Below, in pieces: positions 30,701 to 63,387 of a stretch of 64,000 nucleotides of DNA (the stretch's first letter is position 1; the number at the start of each line of letters is the position of its first letter). The stretch lies in the NCBI GenBank assembly GCA_008632985.1, contig QPGO01000019.1, positions 682,001 through 746,000 on the forward strand. Direction: 5' to 3'. This DNA comes from Psammoneis japonica. Its lineage: Eukaryota. The notes beneath the pieces were generated by a model. The model did no database searches, was not told the origin of the DNA, and saw nothing but the letters and a program-made list of their open reading frames with translations. Made by a program: the position numbers and the translations under genes.

Positions 30701-32925
30701 AAAGAAAAAACATTGATTGTGCAAAACAATGACATTCTTGCAACCCTGACACAAGTCTTGTCAGTGTTGCAAAACATTGAAATTTGGGTGAATCTGCACT
30801 TTCAGTGGTTCTGAGCAGCTTGCCCCCAGCAAACAAATCTGATGCACTGTGGTGCAACACACAACCAATGGGTGAACATGTTGCAAGGCCACAGCTTGTG
30901 CCAGGGCCAAGGACACTGATGGAGGAGGAGAATGGCAAAAGTTCTGATGGTGAGAGGGGCACCCTTGTGCCTTGTGTTTTGCTTTGTTGAAGCTGGGCTT
31001 GCTGCGGTGAGATGCAAGGACCCCCAGCAATGAAGTGTGGGCATGTTGGCAAACCAAAAGGCAGGGATGCTGCAAATTGCTTTTGGCTTTTGGACATCAT
31101 TTTTTTGCAACAGCTTGCAGACAAGAAACGGCATTCCTGCACCCTCATTCCAGCAGATGAGAGTGAGAAAAAATTGAGTGCAATGTGAGCACATTGAAAT
31201 GTTCTGAGGAGGCGCCGAGCTGCAGTGATTTCAAGAATGAGAGCACACACAGCTGCAAATGACAGCCAAGGACAGACTGGGATGCTTCATTGGAATGATG
31301 CCAAAATGCCACCCAGAAACAGCAGCAGCAGGCACTGCACTTGGGGGTGCAGAAAACTGTGCTTTCTTCAAAAGGAATTCAATGATGCCATTGCTGCTCA
31401 TCTGAACGATGACATGGCAAAATCACTTGCACCGTGCACACCACTTGCAACCACCCAAGTTTGCAAGTTTGCGTGCAAGGCATGTGTGAGCACAAGCTCG
31501 CTCACAAATTCTTGATTGAAGACAGTGGGGAGGCCAAGAGAATGGACCAAGAGTGCATTGAATGCATTGCCAAGCTTGTGAAGGCTCGTCACAGCACAAA
31601 ATCTCAGCACCAAATCCATGCAGAAATCATGCAGAAAAATGCGGCCAATTTTTCATCACTCCCCAATGAAGAAAAGGTGAAAGCGGTGTTCATGTTCAAA
31701 ATTGGATGTTCACAAAGGTGAAACCACGATGAACTCAACTGTCTGTGGACCCTCCTTGTCTAGAAACAGCCAGAAAAGCTCAAATTTGAACTTCTGGATG
31801 GCCCCAAAACTCAAAAATGGCATTTCTGGACATTTCTGGACAAAGATCTGCAGAAAGATAAAAAAACATTGTGATTTAGTTGGTGAAATGTGCTCAGATT
31901 TTGGAGCTGCTGACCATTTTTGAACCCCAAACAAGACATGGCAGTTGAAGCAGTTTTGCGAGCAACACAGAGCATCTGGACTTTGGTTGCACAACTGCAC
32001 ATTTGCTCAAATGAAAAGCGGGTGCTCGTGGGGTTCCTGCACCTCAACAGCTGTTGTTTGCGTGACTGTCTGTCTCACTTCAACTTCAGTTGAACAAAAA
32101 CTGTTGGTGAGTTTCGCTTGCCTTGTGCACTTTGTTTTGTGTCAAGATGCTGCAGTTCACCAAGCCCCCTTTTTTAGAATTGCTGGGGCACTGCATTGAC
32201 AATTTGCAAGAGTGTCAAAATTGTTTGGGGCACTTTTCAAGAAGCAGCCAGAGGAAAAAGTTGGAAATGCCCAGATCAACCACGGCTCTCATGCAAAGCA
32301 AACCACACAGCTCTCATCCTTTTTTGTCAGGCCAATGTGTCCTGGATGACTGGGCCAGCTGTGCCATGTGTTGCCCACCCCCTCCAAGAATGGCTGATGT
32401 TTTGTCAATGGCAGCTCTCCATCCCGCACAACAAGCAAGCACTTGCACCATCAGCACGTGCAGCAAGCTGGCTTTTTTTGTTGGTGCTCTGCCAATCTGT
32501 GCTGCTTTTTGGTGCAGGAAAAGAAAGTTGCCAGCACCATGCAAACACGACCCCCTGGAGGGAGTCCCAGAGGGGGGGGGGTGGCGCAGCATGCAGGAGA
32601 TTGCTCCAACTCTCTGTTGTTGCTGGCAACAGCTTCTCATGCAGCGGCACTGTGTGCTGCAAGAGCAGCTGGACACCATGATCTGCCCATTGTCTTTTGA
32701 GTCACTGTTCCATGAGAGTCTCAAGCAGAATCATTGCATCAACTTGAGACCATGCTCTGCACCTCAAATCTCACTGTGTTGCCAGATGACGCTCGGGGTT
32801 GGACCGCACACAACGACGAAGCTCTCGAGAGTCCTGGAGAGTCTTCAGCAGCCAAACAATTCAAAAATGACACAATCCCAAAGAGCTTGCTTTCGGGGCA
32901 TGTGAATGTACATGGCAACCTCTGT

Positions 32926-37653: not shown

Positions 37654-37879
37654 GGGTTTTCAAAATTCCTTTTCAAAAATCACAAATAAATGACCCTTCT
37701 TTCTAATGCTTGCAGAGAGAAGGCGTGTTAATAAGATGGTTTGGTATCCTCAGCGGCTTGAAGAACACACCAGCAATACAAACAACATCGTGTGAAAACA
37801 AAGACACGTACTTCAAATTTCCGGGTGTCTTTGGCCCTTGTCTTTGGCGCGAAGCACACGCATTGTCAGTCTACTGCCA

Positions 37880-38030
37880 CTGCACTCTAGGGCTACTCTC
37901 TAGCTCTAGAGCAGCTAGCTAGCTACAGCAGTAGAGGGCCCTCTACTAGAGCAGAGAGTAGCTACTAGCAGGAGCAGCTAGCAGCTTAGCAGCGGCAGTG
38001 GTCAACTCTCTAGAGAGTGGCTCTAGAGCA
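37880..38030. repeat. CTAG-rich palindromic low-complexity patch at the left edge of block B
   Basis: 18-bp palindrome agtagagggccctctact (37930-37947) among many ctag/agct units. Confidence 0.8.
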
Positions 38031-38286
38031 TGCAGACAGGCACCACGAATTGTTTTCAGTGCTGAGTTCAACAGCTCAAAATCCCTTCAATTCGAAAAAG
38101 AGATGCCAAGGGCCCACATTGAAGATTTGGTTCACAATGGCCAAAGAGAGAAACACATCAACAAAAGAGATCAACCATGGGAAAAAAACCTGCTGCACAA
38201 CCAAGCCAAGGGCAAGCTGCACAAATGTTCCTGCTTGGCCGCAAGGTGGAAGCCTGGTGCACAGAAAGGCACACAGTCTTGGGACA

Positions 38287-39330
38287 CCTCTTTGCTTTCA
38301 ACAGCAGCTGCAAGAGTTTGATTCATGCTTGGAAGAGGACACATGCCAGCACTTGTTGGCTTGACATTTTGTGACCTCTTGGTGTGAGTGCAAGTCACTT
38401 TGGCTTCTCACAGCTTGTGGCGCTGCTGGTGCACAAAGCAATGCATGGCACACAAAGACATTGTGCACTTCTCTCTTGGGCCACAGCTCTGAAGATGCCA
38501 TGTGGGCTCAAGCCACACATTTTCTGGATTGCCATTCATTGAAGCACCAGCTCTTGCAATTTGTTTGCATCATCAGAGCAGGTGCAACATCATTGCCAGA
38601 CACGTCAGAAGGGCACAACAGCAGAAAAACCTTGCTGGATGGCACAAAATGGGTTTCTTGCTGCTTTTTCATTGCTGTCTCCATGGCATTGCAGAGGTTG
38701 TGTTGCTCACATGATTTTGATTCTTGCCAGATTTTGCCCTGCTCACATCCAGTTTCATTGCACAAACACCCCGAACAAGTCTCAGAAGGTGGCAGCATGC
38801 AGGACATCTTGTGCACTTGGCCCCGTGTCCTCTCTTCTCTGCAGTTTTCAACTTTTTTGTGCCACAGCAATGCTGGGAGCTTGGAAGCTCTTGGAGTCAG
38901 GCACAAAAGCTGGGCACATTGCACAAAGTGATGCAAGTGCCACAAAGAGGTGCTTCTCTGCACATGGGCCACACAGCTGCTCATGTCTCAAAGCTCCTCT
39001 GTGCAGCATGTGCAAGCTGTGCAGCTGGATGTTTTGTCGTTGGCAGTCTTGTGAAAAAAAAAATCAAAACAGATGCCCAAAGCACTTGCACTGCAATGGC
39101 ATTTCCTTGCTCTGAGCAAGCAAAAAGAAACCAATGAAAGCATTGGATGCACCTGAGAAAGAGCTTGAAAAAACTTTCCAAAAGCAGCACGCAAGCATCT
39201 CAAAAGAGCACAAGCACTGTTGCAGGGCTTCCAGCGAGCACTGTCACAAGCCCTGCTGTGATTCTGCCACCCCTTTTGTGTTGCAGTTGCTGCTGCAACA
39301 CCAAACAAGCACCACAATGACTGTGCAACA
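38287..39330 (-). pseudogene. Mutated paralog of 48890-49900: MYND-finger 3' end plus about 900 bp downstream of the ARM-MYND gene
   Basis: Colinear shared blocks ctctttgctttcaacagca, aagtctcagaaggtggc, ggaagctcttgga and aaaaaactttccaaa. MYND WYC reads WCC here. Confidence 0.8.
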
Positions 39331-39596
39331 TCCTGCAACCCCTCTCTGTGACCATTGGTGCACCTCAGGACAAAGTGCACATGGAGAGGGGGCTGTGTTG
39401 ATTGTGCATGTCTGGGCACTGCTGTGCTTTCCTGTGTGGGGTGCCAACACCAAACAAGCATTGCAATGACTGCATGTCATCCTGCAACCTCTCTCAGTGA
39501 CTGTTGCACCTGGAGACAAAGTGCCCATGGAGAGGGGCCATGTTGACCGTGCTTGTCTGAGCGCTGTTGTGCACTTTCCTGTGTGGGGTGCCAGAG
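39320..39596. repeat. Two degenerate direct copies, about 148-bp period
   Basis: catcctgcaacc...gacaaagtgc.catggagagggg...tttcctgtgtggggtgcca occurs at about 39320-39447 and about 39468-39593. Confidence 0.8.
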
Positions 39597-40082
39597 CTTC
39601 CTGACACAGCAGAGCCCCTTCCCACAGCAAGGGCTGCAGACAAATGACTGCCAACTTCCGGACTGACAAGCACTTCCACGATGGCATGCCCTGCTTTGTG
39701 CAACAAAGAAGGGTGGAAGGCTCTGCCGCAGTGCTGGCCTTGCCGGTTGTCGCCGCAAGAAGCACAAGCAGCAGAGCGCCAACAGCGTGCTGGTGGCAAA
39801 TGTGGTCTAGACTGGGAAACAAATGGTGCTGCAGTGCATGTGCCACTTTATTTCTTCATCTGTGAAAGGATGATGCAGGGCTTCAACCATGGCTTGAGCG
39901 CCTCTGGAGCTTCCTGCAGCAGCCAGCTGCGCTGACGACGCTTGCCAACTCTCTCACACAAGAGACCTGCACTCCCAATCTCATGCATTTCACATGGGTG
40001 GCTTCCATGTCCTTTGGAACTCCAAACTTGATCACAAATCACAAGATGCGGTGGATGGATGGCTTCAACAACAGTTGGGATT

Positions 40083-40316
40083 AGTCGAGATGCAGTCCTG
40101 CAGCTGAGCAGGATGGATGAGACCTCGGAGGTTGGCAGCAATGTGAACAGCGACAGAGGCAAACAGACGCTTGTTGAAAGTCGTTGTCTGGAAATTGTGA
40201 CGAATGTCGTTGCTTCTGTTTGAATCGATTTTGTGATGAGCCAATCATTTCGAAGAGAAAATCTGAGTCTGGGTTGCAGTCGTGAGATGCGACCAGAATG
40301 ACGTTGAGTCGTGACT
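40083..40316 (-). repeat. 3' LTR (234 bp), zero TpA
   Basis: Gapless match to 47091-47324 except at 12 dinucleotide sites. Confidence 0.97.
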
Positions 40317-40337
40317 CTCCCTCTCAACCGAGAGAGC

Positions 40338-43300
40338 TCACCAGCCCATAAGAGCCTTTCTAGCCGTGCGGAACGCATCGGTCCGTAGTCCCTTCGTGAA
40401 CTGATCGGCCAGTTGCTCTAGAGTGCTGACAGGTTGGACATCGATCTCCAATTGTTCGACTTCAGTCCTAAACCAGTGGTGCGGGATGCCGATGTGTTTG
40501 GTTCGCGGAGACAACTTGGGCATGCGTGCGAACTTGAGGCACGCGGAGTTATCTTCGCACACAACGGACGTAGGTGGGACATTCTGTGCTACAGGCGAGT
40601 CATCGGTGCCTTGGGTTGCGAGCTCAAAAGCCTTGGAGTGAGTCGTGACAGGGTTTTGGCGGTCAGACTTTCCGAATGCGTGGTGGTTGAGCTCCTTGAG
40701 AACTTCACGAATGGGGATGAGATCGCGCATGGCTTGAGAAAGTGCGACACATTCCGCTTCCACAGTCGACAATGCTGCAAGAGTCTGCAGCTTGGACACC
40801 CAGATGAGCGGGCAGCCGGCATGGCAGACAAGGTGTCCAGTCCTGGACTTGACAGAAACTGGGTCTTGACCATCTTCCACACCAAATAACCCCGCGAAGT
40901 CAGAATCGACGTAACAATCAACTCAATGATCTTGCGCAGGCTTGAGAATGAGACCTTCAGTGGCAGTTGCTTTGAGGCATCGGAGTGTCCGCTTCACTGC
41001 AGCAGCGTGGGACGCTCGGGGCACAAACGAGAATCGAGCTGCTTGATGTGTGGCACATGCAATGTCTGGCCGGCTGTTCGCTGCCAAGCACATCAACATT
41101 CCAACAACTGAGCGACAATCGCAGGGTTCATCAAAAGGTGGGCCGTCCGTGTCGGCACCAACAGCCGCAGGTAGAGCTGGAGTAGATGCTCCATTGCAAT
41201 CCTGCATCTGTGCGGTGCGTAGGACCTTGTCAATTAGACCGGGTTGAGTGAGTAGAAATCGACCCTCGGAGAGCTTTTCGATCTTGACACCGAGAAAGTT
41301 GCCGACTTCTCCTTCGTCTCTAAGTTCAAATGCGTGGCGATGTTCGTCGTCGGAGACTCCTAACTTGCGAATTTCGGCTTCTAGAGCTTCAGCTGAAGCT
41401 CCAGCAAAAACGGTGTCGTCGACGTGCACCACACACATCATGCCCTCTTTGAAATACAAACAGGGATCTATGGCTGAAGGCACCCATCCGCGCTCGGTTA
41501 AACCAGCTCGTAACTTCTCGTAGAAGCCCTTGGGAGACTGTTTTAGGCCGTGTGGTCCTTTCAAAAGTTTGAGAACCACATTGAGTCCCGACCTTGGCGC
41601 AAATCCCTTCGGCGGTGTTGCACAAACTTCCTCGGCGATGTCAGCTTGGCAAAAGGCTGTGGCACAGTCCACCTGTCGTGCAGTCCATCCCTCCTTTAAT
41701 GCCGCAGTGAGCATGAGTCGGGTGCTGGACCATTGCACAACCGGCGCGCAGGTTTCGAAGCAGTCGACTCCTTCTTTCTGCAAATCACCGCGGACGCAGT
41801 GTCGGGCCTTGTGCTTGAGAGGGGTTCCATCTGGGAGTCTCTTGAGCTTTGGTGCCCATGTGCCTGGAAGCACATTCATGTGCGGCTGACGCTCGACTGC
41901 TTTCCAGGCTCGACGATGCATAAGTGCGTTGACTTCAATTTTCATCGCCTTGGTCCATTCGTCGGCGTCCGGACCTTTCAGAGCATTGTGTGACGAAGGC
42001 ATGTCAGGGTCCTTGGTTTTCTTGCTAGCTGCGCAGGCTCGTGGATCGCCGATGTTGATGGCGCCACTGTCCAAATCCGTCTCGAGAGTCGCCAGATGCG
42101 CCAGTTGAGCCTCGTGTCCAATCGGCAGCGGCACTTCCTCGACGGAGCTGAAGCAGACCTCATCTACAAACTTGGCAGAGTTGAACTGTCCCTTGGTTGA
42201 CCGTGAAGACCGTCGCAGCCCTGGCACTCCCTCTGGATTCGTCACAGGAGGTGTCTCGACTGGGGGAGGAGCTGTTGGTTCCGTCGGCGCTTCGGGTGGC
42301 GGAAGTCCGTCACTGTCTTGAGGTTCAGGTGGCTGAATTGGCGTAGAGTCCGCAGAGTCTGCAGGAGTTTGAGTCGCAGGTGGGACTGGTGGCGTTGGCT
42401 GCTGAGTCGCAGGTGCGACTCGATCGGCAACGTCGTCGCGAGAAGTGGGTGAATCCGGCACAGTGATCGATGGAGCAGGCTCAAAATGCCCGTGAATGCG
42501 TGTTGCTCTGGCCAGTTCTCGTTCTTTACGTTGACGCTCTGGAGGGGTAAGCCACTCATCGTGTGAATGAACTGCCTGATCCTTCTCCAGAGGGATGCAT
42601 GTCGATTGGTTGAGGCACAAGTGTTCCCAGTGATCAGGTGGATCCGTCTCCCTCTCAATTGATGGTGCGGCAGTGAAGAGATCGTCAAAGACCACATGAC
42701 ACTGAGGTGTGACACTTCCAGTTTGAAGATTGAGGACCAAAGGAACCTCACTGGAATGGATGGTGCTGAGTCCCACGAACAAAGCGCGACGAGTGCAAGG
42801 CTCCCAATGCGGGAGCTTCTTCCCGGAAGCGAGGGTTGGGTCAAGTGCGTACGCTGGACATCCCCATGTGTGAATGTCGCGCAACCGATGTCTTGGCACT
42901 GTTGAACCGGTGAAAATGTCCGCTGGGCAATGTCCTTTGGAATTTGGGGTGACATTGTAGACACACGTGGCACAAGAAACTGCCATGGGCCACAGGGAGC
43001 TGTCAATTCCCCCCTTCCAGTGGATTGATGCATGAAGCAACATCGCTCTCGCCATGTTGGAGATGCTGCGGATGCCCCGCTCTGCGACGCCGTTCTGATG
43101 ATGGGCGTTGGTTCCACAAAAACGGAGACGTTGTTCATGTTCTCGCACATGTTGTACAAAAGCGTTGGCCTTGAAAGCGCCACTGTCGGCAAGAAATTCT
43201 TGGACGATGACCCCGTGGTCCAAAGCATGTTTCTCAAACGCTTGCTTCGCGCGCATCGTCTCAACAGCGGAGAAACCCAGTTGGTGCCCGACCTGGACAT

Positions 43301-46300
43301 GGCCAGAGGCGTGGTCGACAAAGATGCAACCGCCCTTGAATTGCTTGGACGTGGCTTTGCCATAAGAGTCGAAGGTGCGGCCTAAAAGGCGCGACTCAAA
43401 ATGATCAACGCTGACAGCCTGACCCGGTCGAAGATGGTCAGCTCGAAGGGCCCCATCGCGTTCAGGGACTGTCGACTTGTGAGTAGATCCAAGAGAGCGT
43501 CTGTGACCTTTAGCATGTTCGCATGCCTCGCATCTTGGGTGGTCACACTTCGCTGCGGACTTGAAACGGTTCGAAAGGAACGGAACTGCGCGGAGAAGTG
43601 CTTGGACGCGACCAAAGTTCAAATGGCCAAAACGGGCGTGCATTTCGAGAAGAAGCTTTTGGCCTGCCGTGAGGTTTTGATTCTCCTCGTTGAGGATCTG
43701 AAGGTTCACTTGAGGAGCGGCAGATGCGCCCTTGGTCATCGACGCAACAGGCAAGTGGCTTGATGGATGACACGGCACGACCAACTTGCCCATCCCGTCA
43801 ATGTGTGAACGGAAAGTGGTTTCATCGCCCTCATGCTTCCCACGCACCCCCTTCTCTTCGTTGAAGAGGCGTTGAGGCGACAGCAGGCGCTGACGGGCTC
43901 CAGGGACGTAGTGTGCCATGGTGTTCAGGTGGATGGCAGCCCCACTCGGCGTTGTGAACACCCACGCAACCGGACCGGTGCCCTGGATGGTGAGACCGTT
44001 GGCAATCCCATTGATCTGCAAGGGTTTCTTGGGAACAGTCACAGGCCCCGTAAAATCATCTTTGTCGGGGGCAATGGCTGACGTGGCACCAGCATCCATG
44101 ACGACCGTGAGAGCCTCGTCCGACAGACCGATGAGTGCCTGCGGATCGGATGCAAGGAGGTCGGCTTGTGATTGTCCGGTGAGCAGTTGGATGGTGGAGG
44201 CACCACAGACGACTGGTCTAACACTTGCTTCCTCCAATGGTTCCACAGGATCTTGAAAATGGGTGGTGTCCACGATGTGATGCGGCAGACAGAGCTCGTC
44301 AAACCGGAAGAAATCCGGGCTGAAGTCCTCAAGAGCGTCAAAGAAACACTTCTGGTCGTCGAGAGATTCCAGTTCCTCACAGGTGTCAAAGAAGGCTGAT
44401 TCGTCTATCGCATCAGACCATTCAGCTACTTCTGGGCTCTCCCAGCAGGCCTTGAGACGAGTGCTCAGTGCGTGTGACGGATGGCGCGCGACAAACTCGG
44501 TGAGTGCTTGCGTGCCTTTGATCCTGTGACATTCGAACAGTGACCCCGCATCTAACACTATCCGGTCATCTAGCTCTTCCACAATGTGGTAGACTTGAGA
44601 GCTGGCGGTCGAAAAACGACTTGGCACGTTCGAGAATGGACACTCGGGCTGTTGACCGGCGTAAACTGCTGACCACACCATCACTGCAACGGATGGGACC
44701 ATCCAGGAGGCTGGAAACCCGTGCAAAGTTGGGAGTTTGCGCTGGCGGCGTAGAGCTCGAGGGATGCATGGGATCGGAGCAAAGCAAAGATGCAGTGCCG
44801 TTTCCCAAAACATGGCGGCGAGCCAGAATGTGAACAGCTTGACTCAACCCAAGAGTGAGCGACGCGAAGTGGGCTCGTCTTCGACGTCCTCGTGACAATC
44901 ATCCGTGTCCAGGACCTCTGGATCGTAGAAATCGAAGCCACGACACGCAACACACGGAGGTGAGTCGCAGTGTGCGTCTTCAAAGTGTACGTCGTGTTCA
45001 AGGATGAGATCTAACTTGGTGTCGTCTGACAGCACATCCGTCAAATGTGCGGGAGCATCAAAGAACTCATCTGGATGCTTGACAGAGTACAGCTTCGAGG
45101 CCGGAAACAACTCAATAGCCGGTGGTTCGTTTTCAAAGGTAGAGAAAGCGTCGGAGTGTTCGTAGAAGTCATCGGCGTCTTCGGGAGTGACAGTCTCAAC
45201 CACGATGGGAGACACGACTGGATCCACGACTGAGGTGAGTGCAGGTGGGCTCGTTTTGATGCAAACCACCTCAGTGCTGACGACTGCATCGCTCTCCCTC
45301 TCGGCCGAAGAAGCCGGAGTAACAACAATTGCAGCAGCAACAGGGGCGGAACAGAAATCCGGGTCGGTGACGGGATCCGTAGCCGCGCACCACATTCCCG
45401 TGAAAACCAACTCGTTGGGGTCGGATTCGTCTCCCTCTGGTGCCTTGGCAGTCTGAGCGGGCGGACCCATGGGCACGCCACTGTCCGGATCAGCAACGGA
45501 AGACAAATTCCCGGCTGGGGTCTCCTTGGGAGGTTGCCTGCGGTCGTCAGCATGTTCCGCGGTAGAGTGCTTCTGGTGGATTCCAGGTTTGTCGGCACCC
45601 TTCGCCGTGCACGTGGCACACCACTTCCATTCCTTGCCATTCTTATCCTTCTTCGTTTCTCCGTCAAATTTAGCATGCCAGGCAGCGATGGGTCACCTCT
45701 TCTTCTTGGAAGGGTCGTCTGCAGGCGGCGGATTGGGAGGAGGATCGTCGCGCGGCGGTTTGGCGTTGCACTTCGGACACGTCTTCTTGGTGCACCCCTC
45801 GAGACCGCAACCACAACAGTGCTTCGTCTTCCCAGGGTCATCCGTAGTCGAAAGATTACTCTCGGGTAGCTTGGCGACTAATGCAGGCCATTCCCCGTCC
45901 TTCACGAGTTCGTTGTGTTGCTCTTGAATCCACGCAATGATGCCGACCGGTCCGAGCGTTTTGCAATCGCTGTCGGACACGATGTCAGCAGGATTCTTGA
46001 GGCGGCACTTGCGTTCCACAGCCTTGACATCGTCGAGCTTGTTGTAGACTCGGCGATTGAAGTGTTCAGAGGACGTAGAGGAGATCTTGTGGAGCAGCTT
46101 GGAGCTTGTGTTCGCCGGAAGCGCGTGGTCGGTCTGCACAATTTTCACGATGCGAAGAGCTTCGGTGGCAAAGTCCGTGCAATCCTCGCCGGGATGGTCA
46201 ACCAAACTGAGGTCTTCTAGCTGCTTCTTGGCCGTCTCAACATCCGTTAGAGCGCTGGCATTGCAAGTGTCGAGAGCCATCATGAATAGAACAGATCCAG

Positions 46301-46928
46301 GGCAGTCTTGGTAGTCCGAAAGATGGTTGAACTTGGTCTCGATTTTCTCGCGAAAGGTGTCAGTGATTCTTGAGTGAACGAGAAGTTGAGAGAGCCCGAC
46401 ATCGTCGAGCTCGATCTCGTCGTACTTGGCATCATCGGTGGCTGCTTTCCCAACCGTGTACTCGTTCACGAGATCGGTCACAGTAAACTCGTGAAGATGG
46501 TCGAAGACATGTTGAACCTTGTCGTCGCTGTCCTTGACATGGCAGAACGTCTGCTGACCGTGGGCTTCTGCTGGATCTCGAACAGTCTTGACGAAGTGGT
46601 CCTTGTCAAGCTCGTTGATGGGACTGTCCGAAATCTCAAGTCGACCGTTGAACTTGGAAGTCATTGCGGAAGCTTGTTGATCGCGGAGAGATCGTTCTGT
46701 CGAGTCGAGAGCCTTGGGATGACGGCGCTGAGAGGCGAGTCGGCAGGTTCTGTCGTTGGATTGTTCGCAGTTGTTGTTGAGTTTGGAACCACCAATGTAA
46801 ACCCCGTGGGTTGGGTGAATTCCACCACGTAACGGCTTGGTTGGAGCCGGAGGAGCGGTCGCCGCGGCGTTGGCGGCCATTGCATCGGCAAACGCCTTCG
46901 CCAGAACATCTGGATCGATGGCAGCCAT
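40338..46928 (-). pseudogene. Single-frame gag-pol (2197 codons) with three internal TGA stops and many Tyr to His/Cys changes
   Basis: ORFs 45693-46928, 44844-45506, 40923-44813 and 40338-40880 share one frame. Motifs MDAGA, HARFGH...CEAC, HHQNGVAER, KARHCVRG, PHGLKQ, HVDD, YVDSDFAG and EAECVALS. Confidence 0.93.
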
Positions 46929-47090
46929 GACAGAGAGTGCAGTGTGGGAGGTTCTTGTTAGAGTGAAGACGAGAGAAGCGAGAGAGACTCAGCTATTTCC
47001 CGGGTTTGCTTCAAAATCAAAAACCGAAAGCGTCCGTGACGATGACTCGGTCAGGAGCTCTCGTCAACGCGCAAATTGGTCTCTGCGACC

Positions 47091-47324
47091 AGTCGAGACA
47101 CAGTCCTACAGCTGAGTAGGATGGACAAGACCTCGGAGGTTGGTAGCAATGTGAATAGCGACAGAGGTAAACAGACGCTTGTTGAAAGTCGTTGTCTAGA
47201 AATTATGACGAATGTCGTTGCTTCTGTTTGAATCGATTTTGTGATGAGCTAATTATTTCGAAGAGAAAATCTGAGTCTGGGTTGTAGTCGTGAGATGCGA
47301 CCAGAATGACGTTGAGTCGTGACT
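47091..47324 (-). repeat. 5' LTR (234 bp), retains 10 TpA
   Basis: Direct repeat of 40083-40316 at offset 7008. Confidence 0.97.
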
Positions 47325-47534
47325 GGATTCACTGATCTGCAACGCCGTCGGTGCGCAGTGCGAAGGCGGAGTAGAGCTGATTCGTGCATCGACTCGAATA
47401 AGTGGCGGTTCAATGTTCAATCGTGCATCGTGCGTGGTGCGGATCATCTCGGCGACAAATCAATAAAATGCGTGTCGAACCGTCGTGACTTTTGTGAATC
47501 ACAAAAACGAGGAAACAAGCCGCACAAATCAAAA

Positions 47535-48452
47535 ATGAACTTCAGTCACGAAGCAGTAAAACTGGTGCTCCTCGGAGAAAGCGGTGTTGGAAAGTCCACC
47601 ATCGGCAACGCCATCTTAGAAAAGGACTTTGTTGGCCCCTTTCGCACCAGCTATGGCGCAGAGTCCTGTACAGCGCTGCCTCAGGTGGCCCGAAACAAAG
47701 CCGTGGTTGTGACGGACACGCCTGGAAATCCAGACTCGTCGCCCAGAAAGACTAGGTATATCTACGATGTTATTGCTCAAGAAGTGGCAAAGGGCCACAC
47801 GGCAAAGCTCTTTGTGTACAAGGCCGGGAGAAATACACCACCCGACTATGCTCGTCTTGCTCTGCTCTGGCGCGAAATCGCGTCTGCTCCCGGTATAAAC
47901 GTTCTGTTCATCAACGACGACCGAAAATTCCTTATACCTCCAAGCACAGAAGAGTACAGGAGAGAAATAAAAAAACAGTTCAATGCGATCGTCGAATACA
48001 CGGGTATAAATTTCAGCCTGTGGACTCATTTTACGTCGGATAGCATGGTACACGAACTTGCCATACTTGTGGAAAAGCTCAAGAAATATGCAATTCCGGA
48101 AAAGACTACGTTGAGGAGCTTTCAAGATATCAAGGATTTTGTTATGAAAGTGGACGATATTCCACATCAGATCAGGAACAATAAGCGGAAGAGGGCTTGG
48201 CGTACTACTGCCGCTGTGGGAAGCGCGTGCGCTTCCGTTGCAGTTGGCGTTGCTTCAGGTTTCGTGGGTCCCGAAATACTGCCTATTCTGGCATTCACCG
48301 GGGCTGGGACGGCTAAAAATTGGAACAAGCAACGCAAGCTTGCCGCGGAAAACCGAGCTTTGGCCAGGGAATACATGTTTGCCTCGGATGAGGAAATTCA
48401 AAGCTTCCGTGAACTGGTTGATCTCGTGGAAAAAGCCGAGGCTCTCGTTTAA
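47535..48452 (+). CDS. AIG1/GIMAP-like P-loop GTPase with C-terminal hydrophobic segment
   Basis: G1 LVLLGESGVGKSTIGNAIL, G2 SCT, G3 VTDTPG. C-terminal AAVGSACASVAVGVASG. Confidence 0.8.
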   Translation: MNFSHEAVKLVLLGESGVGKSTIGNAILEKDFVGPFRTSYGAESCTALPQVARNKAVVVTDTPGNPDSSPRKTRYIYDVIAQEVAKGHTAKLFVYKAGRNTPPDYARLALLWREIASAPGINVLFINDDRKFLIPPSTEEYRREIKKQFNAIVEYTGINFSLWTHFTSDSMVHELAILVEKLKKYAIPEKTTLRSFQDIKDFVMKVDDIPHQIRNNKRKRAWRTTAAVGSACASVAVGVASGFVGPEILPILAFTGAGTAKNWNKQRKLAAENRALAREYMFASDEEIQSFRELVDLVEKAEALV

Positions 48453-49770: not shown

Positions 49771-50860
49771 TCAAGAACGAGCGTTGTTGCGGGGTTTCCA
49801 ACGAGCCTTGTTGCACGCATCCTTGTGATTCGGCCAATCCTTTGTGTTGCAATCGCCATTGCAATACCATACAATGTCACAACGATTGCACACCATCATA
49901 TCCGCTGATTCCTTTCCGCAACACTTGCATTTAGGAACAACCGTGTTCATGCAGCGGATCGCATTGGTTGCAAAAATCTGAATACTGCGCTTTCCTGGGT
50001 GAGATACTAGAGCTTGCTCCATGACACAGTCACCTCCTGCAGCAAGGACTGCAGATGGATAACCACCAACTTCTTGACTGACAAGCATCGCCGTGATGGC
50101 GCATCCGGATGCTTGAATATCCGCATCGTCGGGATGCTGATTCATGCAAGAAAGTAGGGAGGGGATTCCACCACAATTGACTATCTCCGCAAACACAAGC
50201 GGAGCGTCAATGACGCTCGTGGCAAAAAGGATCGAGAGTAGCGAAAAGATGGCATTGTAATACAAGTGCTTTTTCGTCGTTTCTTCCTCTGTAAAAGGAC
50301 ACTGCAGGACTTCGACTATGGCCGGTACGCCTCCAGCGCATTGTACGTCCGTAACATTGACAGTCGCCAACTCGCCCAAAAGATCCACACCGCGACTCAT
50401 ACATTTCAGGTAGGTGGTGGTGGTTCTCCAAGCCGCTGGAATGCCAGCTTTGATTACATGGTGGACAGCTTGAACAACAGTTGGAATTCCGCCGCTCTGA
50501 GCAATCGCGGCGGCGCAGGCATAACTCGGCAAGCTATCGGCAACCCCAGAAAGAGCAGCACAGCAGAAACACATACCAGATGGGTCATTCTGATGTTTTC
50601 GCATAAAGACAAGAATACTTTCAATGCCTCCAGCCTCGACAAATGCCGAAGCTGCACGAGTCCTGTCCTTTTTGAAGGCACGAAGGAGCTCCGCCATGAT
50701 GGCCGAAGCGTTCACATTGCTCTCGTCGCTTCGCAGTTTCGCGACCACAGCCTGCATGCGGCCAACGATCTGCTCGTCCTTCTTCTTCTCGAGCTAAAGG
50801 CACATTTGCCACCGACTTGATCTTGCCTTTGACTCGGTTACGACGGCTTTTCTTTCCCAT
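49771..50860 (-). CDS. ARM-like repeats + MYND zinc finger, copy 1 (1-nt frameshift near 50780; intact ORF from 50757)
   Basis: C-terminal CKCC...CNRC...WYCNGDC...WPNHKDAC. The family start MGKKSRR at 50860 is out of frame with MQAVV by one base compared with the 63388 copy. Confidence 0.8.
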
Positions 50861-51671: not shown

Positions 51672-52820
51672 TCACAAGGTGGACCTTTCCCAATCTACTG
51701 CTTGGTGGAGAGTAGGTTTCCACCTCGCTTTGTTGCACGCCTTTTTGTGATTCTGCCAATCCCTCTTGAGGCAATCGTTATTGCAATACCAAGTTGTATC
51801 ACACCGGTTGCACACCATCATTTCATCCGCGGATTCCTTTCCACAACACTTGCATTTTGGGACCACTTCCATCATGGACAAGAGCGCATCGGATGCGCAC
51901 ATTTGAATGTCTTTGTTATTTTCCTCATGCAGTACAAGACTTGTCTTCATGACGCAGTCTCCTCCCGCGGCAAGGACCGCCGATGGATTGCCACCAATAT
52001 CGGGATTGGCAAGTACCGCCGTAATGGCGCATCCCGGTGCTTGAATATCCGCAACGTCCGGATACTGCGAGAGACAATCCAATAGGCACGGGATTCCGCC
52101 ACGATTCGTCATATCCGCCAGTGCACGGCCGAGCGCAACTTTTCTCATGGCCATCATTATGGATGCTAGGGAATTCACGGCACTGCGACATGTCTGCCTT
52201 TTTGTTTCTTGATTGGAAAATGGATACTGCAAAACGTCCACAAGGGCCTCGACGCCACCGGAGCGTTGTACACATGATACGTGATGGTTGCCCGCCAATG
52301 CCGCCAAAAGCTCCATGGCACGGCTCATACAATTCATATTGATGCGTTCCATGTCGGTCGGGATTCCAACTTGAAGAATCACGGTACGAATGACTTGAAT
52401 GAGAATTGGGATTCCGCCGTTCCGAACCATGGCGGTGTGAGTGATAGTGTTTGGTACGGCGGGGCATGCTGCGACGGCAGCAAGAGTGGCACAGCATGCG
52501 CACAAGTATGATAGGCCATGTGGATGATTCTTGCGCATAAAGACAAGCATACTGTCAATACCACGAGCCTCGACAAAGTCACAAACGGCACGATCCATAT
52601 TATGATTGTTTTGGGTGTTGTTGAACACTTGACCGAGCTCGTTCAAGACATCAGTCGCAGAATCGACGTCTTCAAAGTCGCCTCGCAATTTTGCAAGCAG
52701 TTGCTGCATGCGGCTCGCATTGTTGTCTTTTTCCTCTTTTTGAACAGCATTTGGAGTGGTGCTGTTTGTCACCGACTTGACTTTTCGGCCGACTTTGGTG
52801 CGGCGGCTTTTCTTTCCCAT
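51672..52820 (-). CDS. ARM-like repeats + MYND zinc finger, copy 2
   Basis: MGKKSRR start at 52820, GGIP repeats, and CKCC...CNRC...WYCNNDC...WQNHKKAC. Confidence 0.88.
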   Translation of the reverse strand: MGKKSRRTKVGRKVKSVTNSTTPNAVQKEEKDNNASRMQQLLAKLRGDFEDVDSATDVLNELGQVFNNTQNNHNMDRAVCDFVEARGIDSMLVFMRKNHPHGLSYLCACCATLAAVAACPAVPNTITHTAMVRNGGIPILIQVIRTVILQVGIPTDMERINMNCMSRAMELLAALAGNHHVSCVQRSGGVEALVDVLQYPFSNQETKRQTCRSAVNSLASIMMAMRKVALGRALADMTNRGGIPCLLDCLSQYPDVADIQAPGCAITAVLANPDIGGNPSAVLAAGGDCVMKTSLVLHEENNKDIQMCASDALLSMMEVVPKCKCCGKESADEMMVCNRCDTTWYCNNDCLKRDWQNHKKACNKARWKPTLHQAVDWERSTL

Positions 52821-53089
52821 GGTGTATGATGATGATGGATTAGTGCTGTGGTGCATTTGAATGTGCTGGTGTCGCTGTGCGATGGTCGGTTTGCGCCTTT
52901 GGTCCAGATGACCCATGGTAGGTTTGGCGCGCTTTCTTTTTCGTCTTTTAGGGTTATTTATGGGATTGTTCATGACGTCAAAACGCAAATTGGTGTCATT
53001 TTCGTAATTTTCCGTCCAAACAGAAGAAAAAGAAATCGTTCTTGAACGCTTTTTTTTTTTCCCGTCAGAGCAACAAACGCTTTCTCAAA

Positions 53090-56000
53090 AATCACAAACA
53101 ATTGATCCAGCTTTGTTTTCTGGCACAAAAAAACAGCATGGGCGATCGAAGAGAAGCGGCGTGCTTTTGATGAGATCATGGTCCTTTGCTATCATCTCCT
53201 CAGTGCACAGAAGAAAGGGGCACAGCAGAAGGGAAGTCCGCCACCACTGCCACTCTACATGACTCCAGCCACCACCATCACCTGGCACTGGTGGTGGCAC
53301 AGCCACTGTGTGCTTCTTTTTCTCAATCAATTCAGTGGAAAGCAGTTGTTGCTCAGCCAAGGCAAGTTTTGCCAACTCTTCTTTGTCACATGGCTTGAAG
53401 AGGCACAGCACATTGTTGATTCATTGTTGGAGAGACATGCCTGCAACTTGCTTGTGAATTTTTCCACCTCAAGCTCCTGCTTGCAGCAGCAGAGATCATG
53501 AGCTGTGCAGCAGAGGGGACATTGTCAAATTTTGTTTTTCAGCTTCTCACAGCAGCAGCACTTTTTTGGTGTGGGGTTGGCAAAGCCCACACACAAGCAT
53601 TTCAGAAGAGGGGCTTGGCTTGTGGCTGGGAGCTGGCTCCTGGCTTTTTAGCTGAAAACCTTCTTGTGGCTCCACAAAGACTGTCCTCTCCTTGAGCTGG
53701 CTCAGCTTGTGTGGCAGCAGAAGGCAGCACCAGCAGAATCAAGCCAGCATGTCATCTAACCTGCCTCAAGCACAATGGTGACAAGCAGCAGCAAAAAGCA
53801 AGCACATGGGCCATCACATTGCAAGAGATTGTGGCTGGAGAAATGCTGCCAACTTTGAAGACTTGGCAGCTGTTGACTTCATGATGCTCTTTGCTTGGGG
53901 AGTGACGATGGTGATGTCAAGTGGTCTGCAATGACTCATGACAATGGCAACAATTCATGAGTCATTTGTCAAACAGGATGAACAAGATTGCAATTGGTTG
54001 GCTTGGGGGATCATTGCAGGAGTTGCAAAAACAAGTTCACAGCCTGACATTGCAATCACAGGCACCAGTGCAACTTTTCCATTTTCAATGTGTTGCACAG
54101 AGCTTGAGCAACTTTCTGATGTGTGCCATTGGTCTGAAGATGCCTCCCAGTTCCCCTCTGTGGGGTGTCAGATCTGACATGTCACCTGCAATTTGGTTGA
54201 CGCGTCTGCATCTGTGAGTGCGGCCTTTGCTTGGAAGGAGTGTGGGAGCCATCCGTGATGCACACAGCAATGCCATCTAGAGAACTTCTTTTGCTGGGGC
54301 CTCCAAAGTTGGTTGAAACCATGGGAAATGAAGCATCACTCTGTGTTGCTGAGTGGTCTCTTTAGGGTGGCTGGAGTCAAGACAGGGGAGCTCCTGTTGA
54401 CAAAATCTTGATTCCTTGCCTTTGAGTGTGGGTTGGGAGGGTGTCGTGAGGGGCCACATCAATGAATCATCCATTAAATTGACAACATGCTCTGCAGCTC
54501 CTGCATTGTTGAGGCAGTCATGTGCATGACTCAATCTAAGTCTTGGTCCTCTGAAACACACCATCCTCCTGAGTTGAGTGCAACCATGGTGTGTTGGGCT
54601 GTTCTTTCCATGTTCCCACTGCTCTCCTCAATCTGAGTTGATCATTCCATCTGATGGGACAAGGTGGCAAGTTGTGAGCACTTCTTGCCAAAGTCTGCAG
54701 CAGGGCTGCTGTCCATTCTTGTCCATTGTCCTTTGTGATCCAGCAGGGTGACATCTCCCACAGGTGTGTTTCTGCTGCAGAGTTGTGTTTCCAGTTGTCG
54801 TTGACCCACCTGAAGGATGCCAAGGACCAGCATCTTTTCTGGAACTGGTGCACCTCCATGTGACAGGATGCCACCCTTTCCAGCAGTTGAGCATTTCTTG
54901 AATGCTCTCCAATGCATCTTTGCAGGTTGTGCCCAGGTTTTCTGGAGCGCGGGGGAGATCATCTGCATCATCCACAAAGGTGGTGCAGCACACAGAATGA
55001 TGTGCTTGTTTGGAGACAAGGGTTGCTTCTGCCCTGATTCCAAATCCTTCAGCACCCTCAGTGTGTTGACAACAGGAAAGCTTGCTGCTGACCATGTTGC
55101 TCTTGTGCCACTCCATGTCCTTGGAAAATGCCTTGCAGTGGAATCTCCAGGGCCATGTGCAGTTCTTTGGAATCCCTGTGTGCAGCTCAAACACAAGGTT
55201 CATTGCCTTGTTGTCTTTGGGCACTGCTCCTGCTCCAAATCTTCTCATGCATGGAGCTGCAATGCAGTGCAGGATCCAATCACAGCATGACTTGGCATCT
55301 GTGCTGTTGGTTGCTCCTGGTCTGTGAGATTGTCAAAACACATCACCCATCAGCACTTTGTTGAGCACACACAATGTGGCTCTGTGCCACCATTTTCCAT
55401 TGCCACGTGCTTCCCTGGGGATTGCCTTGTGAGTCTCCATGTGATTCGCCAGCACTCATGCACAACACTTGTTCATCTTGTCACACATTGCATCAAACAA
55501 GACAGTGATTCATGATTTCTTGATGTGAGAAGATTTGGTCTTTTGTTGGAATCATTTCATCTCTTCCACCTTGGTCCAGCATTTGGGTGCACAGCCATGT
55601 TTTGACAGTGTGGCAGACACACATGAGGCTTGCTCGACCGGCTCACAAAACAAACAAATCAAAAAAAGGAAAGCGCTTGGCGCAGAGTTCTGTGGCGTGA
55701 CACAAGGCCACAACCTGACAGAGTGCCAAAGGTCAATGATGACAGAGGCATGAAAGACTCCCCAAGCACTGGGACTGTGATGCCACAAGCACCAGCAGAA
55801 GAGAATGAGAGAAGATCTCAGAGAGATCTGATCGTCCATCCAGAAGGTCTGTCCATCATCCATGTGCAGAGTCTGTCCATTGCAGAACAGGCACCAGACT
55901 GACATTGCCTTGCCTGCTGGGTTGCCAAGCAGCAGACCTGGACCATCACCTTTGAGAAAGAACAGCAGCTGTTCCTGCAAAAAGCAAGGAATGCCAATGG

Positions 56001-56440
56001 GAGTGCATCAAGTCTTGTCTCCTCCCCCCAAAGCCAGCCAGTGGAGCTCTTTTGGACCCCCAGCACCAGATCACAAACAAGACAAAGACAGCCATCATCG
56101 CTGGCAACTTGTGTCAATTTTTGCATGGCTTTGCACACAACATGCCTCTGTCACCCCACCAAGCAAATTGGTCTTGACAAACCACAAAATGCCGGGCCAA
56201 AAGCAAGCCGCCAAACATTTTGGAGATGGCACTCATGAGATCACTCTCCTTTCTGAGAGTGTTGTTGCTGCTCGATTGTCGATTGTCAAACACAAAGATG
56301 GTGTCACTGGCAATGGTGCCAGTGATGACAGACAGCATTGATGTGCTCTTGTTGTTGCTGCCAATGTTGTCACACTGGATGATGATGGAATTGTGAGAAA
56401 AGCAGAGAAGATTGCTTCAAAGTGAAGGCTGGAAACACTG
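53090..56440 (-). mobile_element. Heavily mutated non-LTR retrotransposon relic (TpA/CpG-depleted block C)
   Basis: RT motifs DAKSCCDWI (55273-55299, compare DAKSCYDRI) and TTFVDD. Many frameshifts. TA is almost absent. Confidence 0.72.
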
Positions 56441-56841
56441 CACATGCGCACGGGCGGGCGGGCGCGAATCGCGCATGAGTTCGCACTGTGGCTGACAACC
56501 AGCCTCGATCAAAACGGGCGGGTTTGTCGAGCGAGGTTGGACAACATTATTTTTTCATTTTTCTCGGATTTGTAACTTGCAGGTTAGAGTCTGCCTTTTA
56601 ATCGAAAAACTGGGTGACTTGTGTGTTTCAAGATGCTTGTCAACCAACGGCCACAACATTTACGTCTGTGAACAGGGCTGATCGTGGGATACGATGCGGG
56701 GGAAGTTTTGGATCGCGGCAATGCCACGAATAAAATCCGCGATGGTCATTCCCACCGCCGGATGGGGATGTCAGAATTTCGTTCTCACAACAAGCAAAAG
56801 GAGCAACAAACGAGCGCATTTGATTCCTAAAGCCAGCAACT

Positions 56842-58422: not shown

Positions 58423-58920
58423 CTCTGTTGTGTCTGTACTTCCGTCAGTCGGAATTCAGAGCGTATTTATGACAGAAACAATGTGCTTTCCACGCACCGG
58501 GTCTGTCACGCCTTGCGTTTGCCACATAGCGATTGCTAATGTTGTCATCATTCTCTGTGGCTGAATGGTTGCTTGCTACAGTATAGCTTGCTTTTTTCTC
58601 AGTTACAATGGTCTTTCTTTTCGCCATGGTCGACTGTCGCTGTTTTTTCTGCGTTTTCCGCTTGAAAGGCGGTCCAGATGGGCAAGTTTCTCAATTTGGC
58701 GTTTTTTCTTTTCTTTTTTTTTGTTCTCCTGTCCGAAAGTTCAAAAATACCAAAAACGATGGCAGAAACGATGAAAAAGTGCGCTCTCAAAAGCGCAGAA
58801 CCGGCCCATCTGGACCGGTGGTCCTTGATACGCGATGATCCGCGGAAGCTCGTTTCTCGCTTGAGTTTGATCATGATCAAAAAAAGCAAAAGAACCTCCT
58901 CCCAGCATACACAGCCGACC

Positions 58921-60006
58921 ATGGGAAAGAAAAGCCGTCGCAACCGCGTCAAAGGCAAGCTCAAGGCGTCGTCAGAGGACAATATGAATGATGCTATTCA
59001 TGGGAACATCCAGGACCTTGTCGACACTTTGCGGACCAAATGTGCAGAAGAATCCGATGATGATAAATCGGCGTGGGATGCCCTTGCAAACCTGCACATT
59101 GCAATGGGCAAGAATGCGGATCGTGCGTCTCGGGCCATTTTCCACGCTGGAGGCATTCGTGCAATCATTGTCTTGATGAGAAAGTCACAACAACATGAAT
59201 TGCCATTTCACTGCTTGAGCTTTGAAATCCTTTGCGAAATTGCAAACAGATTGTCGACGACAGGAGCACCCATGGCGATTGTCAAGAGCGGCGGAATTCC
59301 AACGACTGTTGCGACCATTCGCGGTTTTATTGGAGCTGGAGTTCCGGAGTATGCAGAAAAGACTGTTATGGGATCTGTAGCCTGTGCTCTTGAGCTTTTG
59401 GGGATTTTGACGCGGGTCAATGTCAATGGTGTTCTACATGCCGGAGCTGTTGAAACCATCTTTTCAGTTTTGCAGTATGATTTCAAAGTTCAAGAGTGCA
59501 AGAAATCGACGTGTTGCAGTGCCATAGATGCACTAGCATCAATCATCAAGGCTACGAGTGACGTTCAACTCCCGCATGTACTTGCGGAAACGATCCGTTT
59601 CGGTGGAATTCCTTCCATACTTTATTTCCTCAAGAAGCATCCTGATGATTCTGACATTCAAGCCCCCGGATGCGCCATCGTGTCGATGCTCTCTGACCCC
59701 GATATTGGTGGTAATCCATCTGCAGTCCTAGCTGCAGGAGGTGATGGTGTCATGAAGACTGCTCTTGAACGCCACGAAGGAGATTTCGGCATTCAGGTGT
59801 GCGCTGCCGAGGCACTTTCCGCTTTGAAAGAGGTTGTTCCGAAATGCCACGGTTGTGGACGGAAATCAGAATCGTTGATGGTGTGTACGCGTTGCGAAAC
59901 TACTTGGTATTGCAATGATGGTTGCCTTGCGATGGATTGGGAGAAGCACAAGGAGGGGTGCAACAAGATTCGGTGGAAATCCTGCTGCAACGACGCCCAT
60001 GCCTGA
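58921..60006 (+). CDS. ARM-like repeats + MYND zinc finger, copy 3
   Basis: MGKKSRR start, DIQAPGCAI, and CHGC...CTRC...WYCNDGC...WEKHKEGC. Confidence 0.88.
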   Translation: MGKKSRRNRVKGKLKASSEDNMNDAIHGNIQDLVDTLRTKCAEESDDDKSAWDALANLHIAMGKNADRASRAIFHAGGIRAIIVLMRKSQQHELPFHCLSFEILCEIANRLSTTGAPMAIVKSGGIPTTVATIRGFIGAGVPEYAEKTVMGSVACALELLGILTRVNVNGVLHAGAVETIFSVLQYDFKVQECKKSTCCSAIDALASIIKATSDVQLPHVLAETIRFGGIPSILYFLKKHPDDSDIQAPGCAIVSMLSDPDIGGNPSAVLAAGGDGVMKTALERHEGDFGIQVCAAEALSALKEVVPKCHGCGRKSESLMVCTRCETTWYCNDGCLAMDWEKHKEGCNKIRWKSCCNDAHA

Positions 60007-60524: not shown

Positions 60525-61331
60525 TTATTTATCAAATTGTAAAATTCCATCAATATCAGGATTGTATGTCCCTTCTGCAATCTTCTTTTCATATTCAGTA
60601 ACTGCTACAAAGTAACCGTAATACTTCTCCTTCTCTCGTTCCGGAAGGTATTCGTAGAGTTGGTTGAGATTGATTCGTACGAGTTGGTACATGTCGGCAA
60701 GCTGGACCATTTCGATGGTTTCAAAATCGCGTTGGATGGAAGCTGCATATTTTTCAATCTCCTGTAGAGTATTCATGGCATTTGCTGCATTTTTCGCCGC
60801 CTTTTTCCGTTCCTTGCGAGGGATTTCTTCGGCAATCATGAGTCGCATATTCCCGTCCAAATTGGAGTTTCGGAGCAAGATTTGGGTGCCAAACACAAAC
60901 TGCATCGGAGAAACTTTGACTCCTTCGAGTTCTCCGTTGGCAACAGATCTCAAAATCTTTTCCTGGAATTGGGCAACCTCCGCCACCCTCAAGACCACCA
61001 ATCCGCTTCGTTCCTCGGGAGCCTGTGGAACGGCAGGATTCTCGTACAGTTCCTTGACTTCGGGATCGTCAAAAAAGTCTCCTTCGTCCGCCCGAGAAGC
61101 CGGCGCTCCAGTGAAGAGACTTGCCATTGAAAACGCGATGCATGACGATTCTGCCTGTCGTTGAATCCAATTTCGTCGACTCAATCCCTGATCTCGTTCA
61201 CTGTCGACGGAAGCTGCCTGTAAATTCCTCAGATTGGATTGAGAAACGCCATTCGCCGAGAGAGCAGTGGTGGCAAGCCATTCAGAGCACACAAAAAGCA
61301 GCAGGAAGATACATCGTCTAGTAGGGAACAT
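60525..61331 (-). CDS. Probable plastid (thylakoid lumen) protein of unknown function
   Basis: Signal peptide, then twin-Arg LSRRNW, a hydrophobic stretch and an AxA-type site (ASRA), followed by a helical mature domain. Confidence 0.75.
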   Translation of the reverse strand: MFPTRRCIFLLLFVCSEWLATTALSANGVSQSNLRNLQAASVDSERDQGLSRRNWIQRQAESSCIAFSMASLFTGAPASRADEGDFFDDPEVKELYENPAVPQAPEERSGLVVLRVAEVAQFQEKILRSVANGELEGVKVSPMQFVFGTQILLRNSNLDGNMRLMIAEEIPRKERKKAAKNAANAMNTLQEIEKYAASIQRDFETIEMVQLADMYQLVRINLNQLYEYLPEREKEKYYGYFVAVTEYEKKIAEGTYNPDIDGILQFDK

Positions 61332-61689
61332 ACTTGACTCTCAACCTTCCGTCTGCATTGACAGCAGTGCTGTGGCTGTCATTTTGCATGCCACATCAAC
61401 ACGGAAACCGGAAACCACATCATCTCTCCCCTTTTTGCCTGAGCGTATTCTGAGTCCCGTCATGACGTCAGTGAATCGTGAAGCACGACTGACGTGTGTA
61501 AGCTGCTGGTAATCCGGTCACATCATTGCGGGGCCGGGGGTACAGCAGGCGGAGGGGGGAAGATTATTTGTCGTCTCCATTACATGCATCTTCTGCGGCC
61601 ACCCTCGCTCGCGCCCCTCGGCGGGTGTCCCCATTGTCGTTGTGTACGACCCGCTTCGAACCCCCCCTTTTCCCCCCATCGCACCTCAT

Positions 61690-63040: not shown

Positions 63041-63387
63041 CAGGTAGTAAAGTAGAGGACGCGATTCACATCATTTGAGATAGCTAATGTGAAGCAGAAG
63101 CTCTGCTCAAGTTGAAAGGAATCGAATGTTGCAACATGGAAACAGTCTTACACAAAACTTTTAACTTGGGCGCGCAGGACCGTTTTGACACTTTTTTTGC
63201 CAATTTTACGAATTTTTATTTTTGATGTGACATTCCGATAAACAACCCAAAAAGACGAAAAATAAAGCGCGCCAAAACGTTGGCCCACATGGACTGCGCA
63301 TTTTTTTTTTCCAACACACATTGAACATCATAACGCAGACACAACACACAACACACAATACAGGCATCAAAAGGTCGACAACACATC

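Follow-up and report, generated by a model that had tools for sequence, protein, structure and literature searches.

Chromosomal neighbourhood, and not repetition alone, seems to aim a TpA-removing mutator at a copia LTR family in a probable diatom

The two long terminal repeats (LTRs) of a retrotransposon match each other in sequence, age and copy number, and any difference between such twins therefore isolates the effect of position. A copia element in the stretch of DNA analysed here (the window, 64,000 nucleotides) presents such a difference and raises the question of why one of its LTRs has lost every TA dinucleotide while the twin, beside a gene, has kept 10. The element lies at 40083-47324 on the minus strand (7242 bp, in broken frames with stops between them), and is assigned to Ty1/copia by two direct LTRs, a 5-bp target site duplication (TSD; GGATT, left copy 40078-40082, right copy 47325-47329, plus strand), and an RVT_2 domain downstream of the integrase region, with Pfam matches in the minus-strand frames ordered gag_pre-integrs (amino acids 401-445, under its cut-off), SH3_retrovirus, and RVT_2 (amino acids 979-1224, E = 2e-31). 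To the right, the ATG of an intact AIG1-type GTPase ORF (47535-48452, plus strand, 305 amino acids; Pfam AIG1, E = 7.9e-10, over its cut-off) stands at 47535, 210 bp past the 5′ LTR, the ORF having a normal TA content (TA o/e 0.65), 3.0% tyrosine, and a single match in the genome. To the left, the element adjoins an old TA- and CG-depleted block (38025-40082; HMM edge at 38024), which arose by duplication of the MYND/ARM-gene region near 48.8-50.5k and has since decayed; the MYND pseudogene was also looked for beyond the right end of the copia element, where it gave no match. The left junction is matched by an independent X1-run contig (39000-40112) with 3 differences, none of them inside the LTR, the first 30 bp of which agree, and an empty-site joint for the insertion is not listed among the X1 and X2 contigs, an absence that is uninformative. 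At least four MYND/ARM paralogs are clustered in the window (49774-50793, 51675-53084, 58789-59979, and 63196-63999), in addition to the decayed copy at 38-40k, and other TA-depleted segments with sharp edges lie at 15701-32908, 52602-56547, and 60771-63023.

The twins, a 3′ LTR at 40083-40316 and a 5′ LTR at 47091-47324 (both minus strand), are 234 bp each and 94% identical, with 14 differing positions. The TA counts of 0 for the left LTR and 10 for the right reported in a preliminary description of this locus are confirmed, with 13 CG in both, and 10 of the 14 differences consist of TA in the right LTR and CA or TG in the left. The remaining four fall in two double-hit sites, one at offsets 9-10 (47099) and the other at 36-37 (47126), where one LTR reads TG and its twin CA. 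The preliminary description placed two hits only in the spared LTR, within its innermost 40 bp; both are found there, but a third lies at offset 60 (47150), and was missed by comparison of the pair because both window LTRs read TG at this position, with TA observed in 11 of 48 family LTRs. It is probable, if not fully certain, that the TG of the window LTRs is a post-insertion hit rather than an inherited state. Scored over the 13 family TA sites (positions reading TA in at least 2 of the 48 paired LTR copies), the spared LTR is hit at three, all in its inner 61 bp, and keeps 10, with none kept by the erased LTR. The asymmetry is real (10 against 0 discordant sites, binomial p = 0.002), and its outlier is the spared LTR, not the erased one: site hazards drawn from LTRs in TA-depleted flanks predict 10.5 hits in the spared LTR, with three or fewer occurring in 0 of 1,000,000 simulations, and render the erased LTR only mildly extreme (P(13 of 13) = 0.034). 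The interior of the window copy is hit at 211 of 287 TA-derived sites.

A pattern search of the genome yielded 63 LTR copies of this family, compared as 24 pairs and 14 unpaired LTRs, with an extra LTR beside C51 left unscored. The same LTR site reads TA, CA, or TG across copies and CG in only 2 of 624 site states, which identifies TA as the starting state. The preliminary description was framed around fungal repeat-induced point mutation (RIP), a frame that fails here, with TA destroyed, not created, in a host that is probably a diatom. A protein from the window has Bacillariophyta in most of its nearest Atlas clusters (score 0.96, with recognition under the tool's threshold), which suggests a diatom without proving it. 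Three observations point to a process that removes TA, the reverse of RIP: the LTR site states, the decayed MYND/ARM duplicate, in whose aligned blocks 28 TA of the intact paralog have become CA or TG and 19 have become something else, with 0 kept, and the reverse transcriptase frame of the window element, which reads HVDD where copia elements usually carry YVDD. The process converts TA to CA or TG on either strand (A to G at TpA), and acts at the DNA level after insertion. Within the 24 pairs, 220 of 295 LTR differences fall at the 13 TA sites (122 T/C and 98 A/G), the others comprising 35 at CpG, 29 other transitions, 8 transversions, and 3 gaps, and TA-type changes also occur in four TSDs, with the altered copy on the erased side in C71, C29, and C8b; this concentration at TA sites, together with the changed TSDs, indicates that mutation acts on inserted DNA. 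No pair of subfamily-A copies exceeds expectation by much in the derived states it shares (largest excess 0.053), and sibling interiors show about 200 TA-site differences against 6-21 transversions. Beside this loss of TA, that of CG is slow, as the 35 differences at CpG against 220 at TA sites attest.

The hit rate of TA roughly doubles when the next base is a pyrimidine (0.46-0.47 against 0.21), with the hit share rising from 0.41 to 0.70 and 0.89 for sites with 0, 1, and 2 TAY strands respectively. TadA/ABE enzymes may prefer TAC-like motifs, a preference that the literature searched did not confirm. Neither strand bias nor bias by transcription strand was consistent after control for context, and strand-coordinated clusters, as expected from a processive single-strand deaminase, were not found (|z| at most 2.1); hits do cluster within about 40 bp, with weak hints only of nucleosome periodicity. 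The genome contains five uncharacterised matches to the PF14437 deaminase family, which also has matches in 12 of 14 control genomes, and 27 unclassified C5 DNA-methylase matches, among them several of full length and several broken, which is more than a few DNMT genes would be expected to give.

The main tests of what predicts sparing cover one LTR family in one genome, and use the 18 of 24 pairs with a matching TSD (C51, C201, C154, C96, C375, and C114 being dropped for mismatch), with all 24 pairs giving a similar outcome (5′ versus 3′, p = 0.27; flank rho 0.62-0.63). The 14 unpaired LTRs were reduced to nine, with C305 (an insertion identical to C112) and C494 (outer side unclear) dropped, and C42, C123b, C367, and C440 counted once. 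These last four have one flank in common (L092, L093, L098, and L099), as C201, C154, and C375 have one 3′ flank, and LTRs that share a flank in this manner are, judging by it, duplicated or allelic insertions; C42 carries one TA hit more than its three twins.

Identity as 5′ or 3′ LTR is not predictive of sparing, with the 5′ LTR retaining more TA in 10 and less in 8 of the 18 pairs (p = 0.61), and mirror pairs sparing the 3′ LTR (5′/3′ TA counts of 6/13 in C4, 2/12 in C8b, and 3/13 in C123). The state of the adjoining DNA is, with LTR TA content tracking the TA o/e of the adjacent 300 bases of flank (rho 0.67, p = 7e-6, n = 36), a relationship that extends to comparisons within pairs (rho 0.53-0.56, or 0.49, p = 0.048, omitting the window pair). 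Flank direction agrees in seven of eight strongly asymmetric pairs, the exception being C4. The nine unpaired LTRs keep 13, 12, and 7 TA in normal flanks and 1-4 in depleted flanks (two-group p = 0.027), with a rank correlation that is not significant (rho 0.50, p = 0.17). Two further exceptions are the 3′ LTRs of C208 (1 TA) and C81 (0 TA), erased beside flanks classed as normal by the HMM, despite which the 800 bp closest to the C81 LTR are TA-poor.

The preliminary description linked sparing to the proximity of a gene, and a dependence on distance is indeed seen across the family, with LTRs keeping less TA the farther away the nearest gene-like ORF lies (rho -0.70, n = 36; paired rho -0.82, n = 18; sign agreement 13/18), where gene-like ORFs are defined partly by normal TA content and gene distance and flank state are not independent. 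With a gene-like ORF no more than 1 kb away, all 12 LTRs keep 6-13 TA, against four or fewer in 20 of the 24 with none so close. Within normal flanks, the effect of gene distance does not reach significance (rho -0.41, p = 0.10, n = 17). Among the nearby ORFs, many are ordinary host genes by Pfam, with matches to UCH, EF-hand, PRMT, E1 dehydrogenase, and GDA1. LTRs facing gene 3′ ends keep 6-13 TA (seven LTRs) and those facing gene starts 9-11 (five LTRs), and the C81 5′ LTR, C294, C188, and C11b are spared beside unmutated flanks with no gene-like ORF in 1 kb. The spared end usually faces ordinary unmutated host DNA, and both gene ends and ORF-free unmutated flanks are as protective as promoters. 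As twin LTRs share sequence and repeat status, sparing follows flank state, not copy number.

Position dependence with a step near 47.1k, as first proposed for this locus, is upheld by a site-by-copy model, in which the interior at 46383-47090 is hit at 20 of 27 sites (19.8 expected) and the 5′ LTR at 3 of 13 (8.0 expected, P = 0.002). Because the neighbouring interior is mutated as expected, the drop is limited to the LTR, at ~47.10-47.16k, and the right edge of the TpA-mutated domain falls at 47099-47156, inside the 5′ LTR, with the last hit at 47150 and an unbroken run of kept TA sites from 47156. The element interior is itself non-uniform, since the bin at 40883-41682 is likewise under-hit (23/39, 28.1 expected, P = 0.002). 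Pooled outward profiles of observed/expected hits run 18/21.9, 9/25.2, 1/10.3, and 1/10.7 for seven gene-flanked 5′ LTRs, and for six 3′ ends beside genes 25/43.5 in the final 300 bp of the interior, followed in the LTR by 3/5.9, 1/7.9, 0/8.3 (mid-LTR), and 6/36.2, these groups having been assigned by hand from flank data after the LTR counts were known. In gene-flanked 5′ LTRs, 27 of 56 inner sites are hit compared with 2 of 35 outer sites (p = 2e-5), and the gradient inside LTRs has p = 0.0009 for the 16 that keep at least six TA and p = 0.14 over all 36. Overall, the mutation rate falls about tenfold within 100-300 bp of an element end facing unmutated host DNA.

Very TA-rich, CTAG-like short stretches occur at several domain edges, including window positions 37872-38024 (13 TA per 100 bp) and the flanks of the C71 and C130 3′ LTRs (21-26 and 11-22 TA per 200 bp respectively; L036 and L053 flanks), and could be boundary elements or ordinary intergenic DNA. 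At 39700-40082, CG amounts to 1-6 per 100 bp near the element and 0-1 deeper in the old block, with TA absent from both; from this gradient, the domain of the old block may have grown rightwards over time.

We favour, with a probability of about two in three, a TpA mutator targeted to domains, with the edge of a domain lying within any LTR that borders open host DNA. The mutation itself covers the whole element, can run into the flank, and ends inside an LTR facing unmutated DNA. Its target would be a silent chromatin domain nucleated on the element, which by analogy is probably the CG-methylated transposon chromatin known in diatoms, with open host chromatin, whether gene start, gene end, or intergenic, halting the domain about one to two nucleosomes inside the element. 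At the present locus, the element would have inserted at the edge of the old block, with the 3′ LTR engulfed and the 5′ LTR becoming the new border. Old blocks are CG-poor, as methylation decay would give, and TA-poor, CG-normal flanks of 0.6-1 kb beside the 3′ LTRs of C71, C81, C120, and C153 suggest spread of mutation into host DNA. The enzyme might, more speculatively, be a TadA/ADAT-type adenine deaminase, a candidate already put forward for Bigelowiella natans, discussed below. C71 appears to interrupt an ORF (L036:3622-4563 and L035:5357-5998), the 3′ side of which is TA-poor and CG-normal for ~1 kb, likely by spread into host DNA, with the 5′ side untouched and the 3′ TSD copy mutated. 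The C29 3′ flank (L039:2985-5694) is TA-poor but CG-normal over a long stretch that contains an XPG_I ORF and may be a recent insertion of viral or mobile origin.

The preliminary description also offered active promoter chromatin as the protecting agent, a reading in which the gene next door would shield a constant ~400 bp upstream of its start codon. The GTPase ATG does have the last hit (47150) 385 bp upstream of it, the left block edge at 38024 is ~370 bp upstream of an ATG at 37653, and in 6 of 10 flanks with a depleted segment and, beyond it, a gene-like ORF facing outward, the gap measures 256-506 bp; in the other four, however, it measures 1.3-3.3 kb. Moreover, spared subfamily-A 5′ LTRs have their hits in the inner 70 bp at ORF distances of 147, 207, 210, 586, 1143, and 2534 bp, gene ends are as protective as starts, and the C81 5′ LTR, C294, and C11b are spared although the nearest gene-like ORF lies beyond 2.5-3 kb. 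Protection specific to active promoters is therefore not borne out, and a fixed promoter shield is an unlikely account of the edge.

The similar edge position inside spared LTRs at any gene distance would also be expected if the mutator were targeted by homology with an end effect, the outer 150-250 bp of a repeat being under-mutated and an LTR looking engulfed only where the flank is itself repeated, and many depleted flanks are indeed repeats or duplicates. We consider this improbable, as the intact MYND/ARM paralog near 48.8-50.5k retains its TA whilst its duplicate has lost every aligned one, the 3′ LTRs of C81 and C208 are erased up to their outer ends, and the TA-poor, CG-normal flanks noted beside four 3′ LTRs suggest spread into host DNA. 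A correlation with gene distance is equally predicted by survivorship, in which domains stop at random and insertions whose domain overran a gene are purged, leaving gene-side ends that merely look protected; selection of this kind has been argued for RIP in Zymoseptoria in the accessible part of one study (PMC9970103). Random stops, however, would not be concentrated within a 234-bp LTR, short of the gene by hundreds or even thousands of bases, and ORF-free flanks protect too, which leaves survivorship decidedly improbable.

Recent gene conversion of the spared LTR from an unmutated copy, named at the outset as a finding that would overturn position dependence, has potential donors in the LTRs that keep all 13 TA sites (one in C4, one in C123, and the unpaired C294), and may still apply to the window copy alone, whose LTRs lack a diagnostic non-TA variant. 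As a family-wide cause it is disfavoured by the sequences, since it predicts neither the link to flank state nor the inner-side hits of gene-flanked LTRs, and lineage variants link spared LTRs to the erased partner in the same element (the variant at offset 91 is confined to the two C71 LTRs, and that at offset 70 occurs in C8b and C123); we regard it as very improbable. Sparing of the 5′ LTR as the element's own promoter, which five of the eight strongly asymmetric TSD-matched pairs might suggest, is refuted as the main cause by the 10 to 8 split of pairs (p = 0.61) and has scarcely any likelihood, with 5′ LTRs in depleted flanks (TA o/e < 0.2) keeping only 0-4 TA, although a small effect of 5′ identity on edge position is possible.

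An interior patch at 46543-46752 behaves in the reverse manner, its TA sites being hit where the 5′ LTR of the copy is spared and kept where that LTR is erased. Among 106 sliding windows (sd 0.13; subfamily A, six versus five copies) the difference here, 0.68, is the largest, a post hoc observation to which C71 is an exception, and over 17 copies of both subfamilies the difference is not significant (p = 0.06-0.11). LTR offset 9 (47099) is likewise reversed, with TA kept in 6 of 9 erased and 1 of 9 spared copies, again post hoc. Because retention in the patch is reversed relative to the state of the 5′ LTR, a bolder reading can be entertained, in which diatoms possess a chromatin-aimed, adenine-directed defence mutator and the LTR is a two-state boundary: facing open DNA, the LTR would be protected and the patch 340-550 bp inward exposed, and facing silent DNA the reverse would hold. 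This we hold as tentative, the odds lying against it. If true, TA loss would permanently record chromatin state at ~50-bp resolution, and the record could be read without any data beyond the sequence.

RIP generally mutates both members of a linked duplication, unlike the process described here, in which the twins hold 10 and 0 TA, and the MYND/ARM paralog is intact but its duplicate has lost all aligned TA. RIP also proceeds by C to T change and creates TA, as its CpA/TpA index reflects (PMC9970103), whereas here TA is destroyed, with CA and TG arising from one site. RIP is, in addition, a fungal process that requires RID and the sexual cycle. In the accessible portions of the fungal studies, RIP leaks into single-copy DNA (PMC3105345) and is weaker on copies near genes (PMC9970103), and to that extent resembles the present process as a defence-like mutator that ruins transposable elements (TEs) in compartments with borders, with leakage into flanks and weaker action near genes.

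A closer parallel is provided by B. natans, for which the available part of a preprint describes TpA to TpG/CpA changes on both strands of integrated NCLDV and virophage DNA in accumulation lines, with TE-derived domains enriched among TpA-poor ORFs and TEs suggested as further targets (bioRxiv 10.64898/2026.01.13.699255); mutation there is ongoing and differs between lines, with an ADAT2-like enzyme as the candidate. As far as that part extends, both systems show TpA-only transitions on both strands, far above background and confined to clustered regions; unlike the viral targets of B. natans, the targets in this probable diatom comprise a copia element and a duplicated host-gene region, and the changes are read from copies, not accumulation lines. 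The available main text of the preprint lacks the terms 'diatom', 'LTR', 'boundar', 'edge', and 'flank', and hence a positional rule, and no TAY preference is described in the part considered. In Phaeodactylum tricornutum, TEs including CoDi copia elements carry DNMT5 CG methylation, H3K9me2/3, and H3K27me3, according to the part of the study consulted (PMC9998398), a silent state that could define the domain here, where old blocks are CG-poor; unlike that account, which in the same part concerns silencing only, mutation is observed here, with CG loss slow beside TA loss. Heterochromatin also spreads from retrotransposons in maize and mouse (PMC3521669, PMC3183085; available portions), giving similarly position-dependent silent domains at LTR elements, with an epigenetic mark there and a fixed mutation record with base-level edges here. 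A literature search, with most subscription papers outside it, found no diatom report of TpA hypermutation. The TpA signature itself is already published for B. natans, and what is new here is the family-wide separation of position from 5′/3′ identity.

Repetition alone is thus insufficient to draw mutation, and the outcome depends on the neighbourhood, resolved to a step of 100-300 bp. Target choice was left open for the B. natans mutator in the available text, and LTR twins address this targeting, with dozens of mapped edges provided for tests of methylation, accessibility, and deaminases in an algal group with genetic tools. LTR-divergence dating in this family measures exposure, not age. 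Positional targeting explains how a mutator can coexist with a gene-dense genome, and a little-known genome defence seems to be aimed by chromosome position, not by repetition alone.
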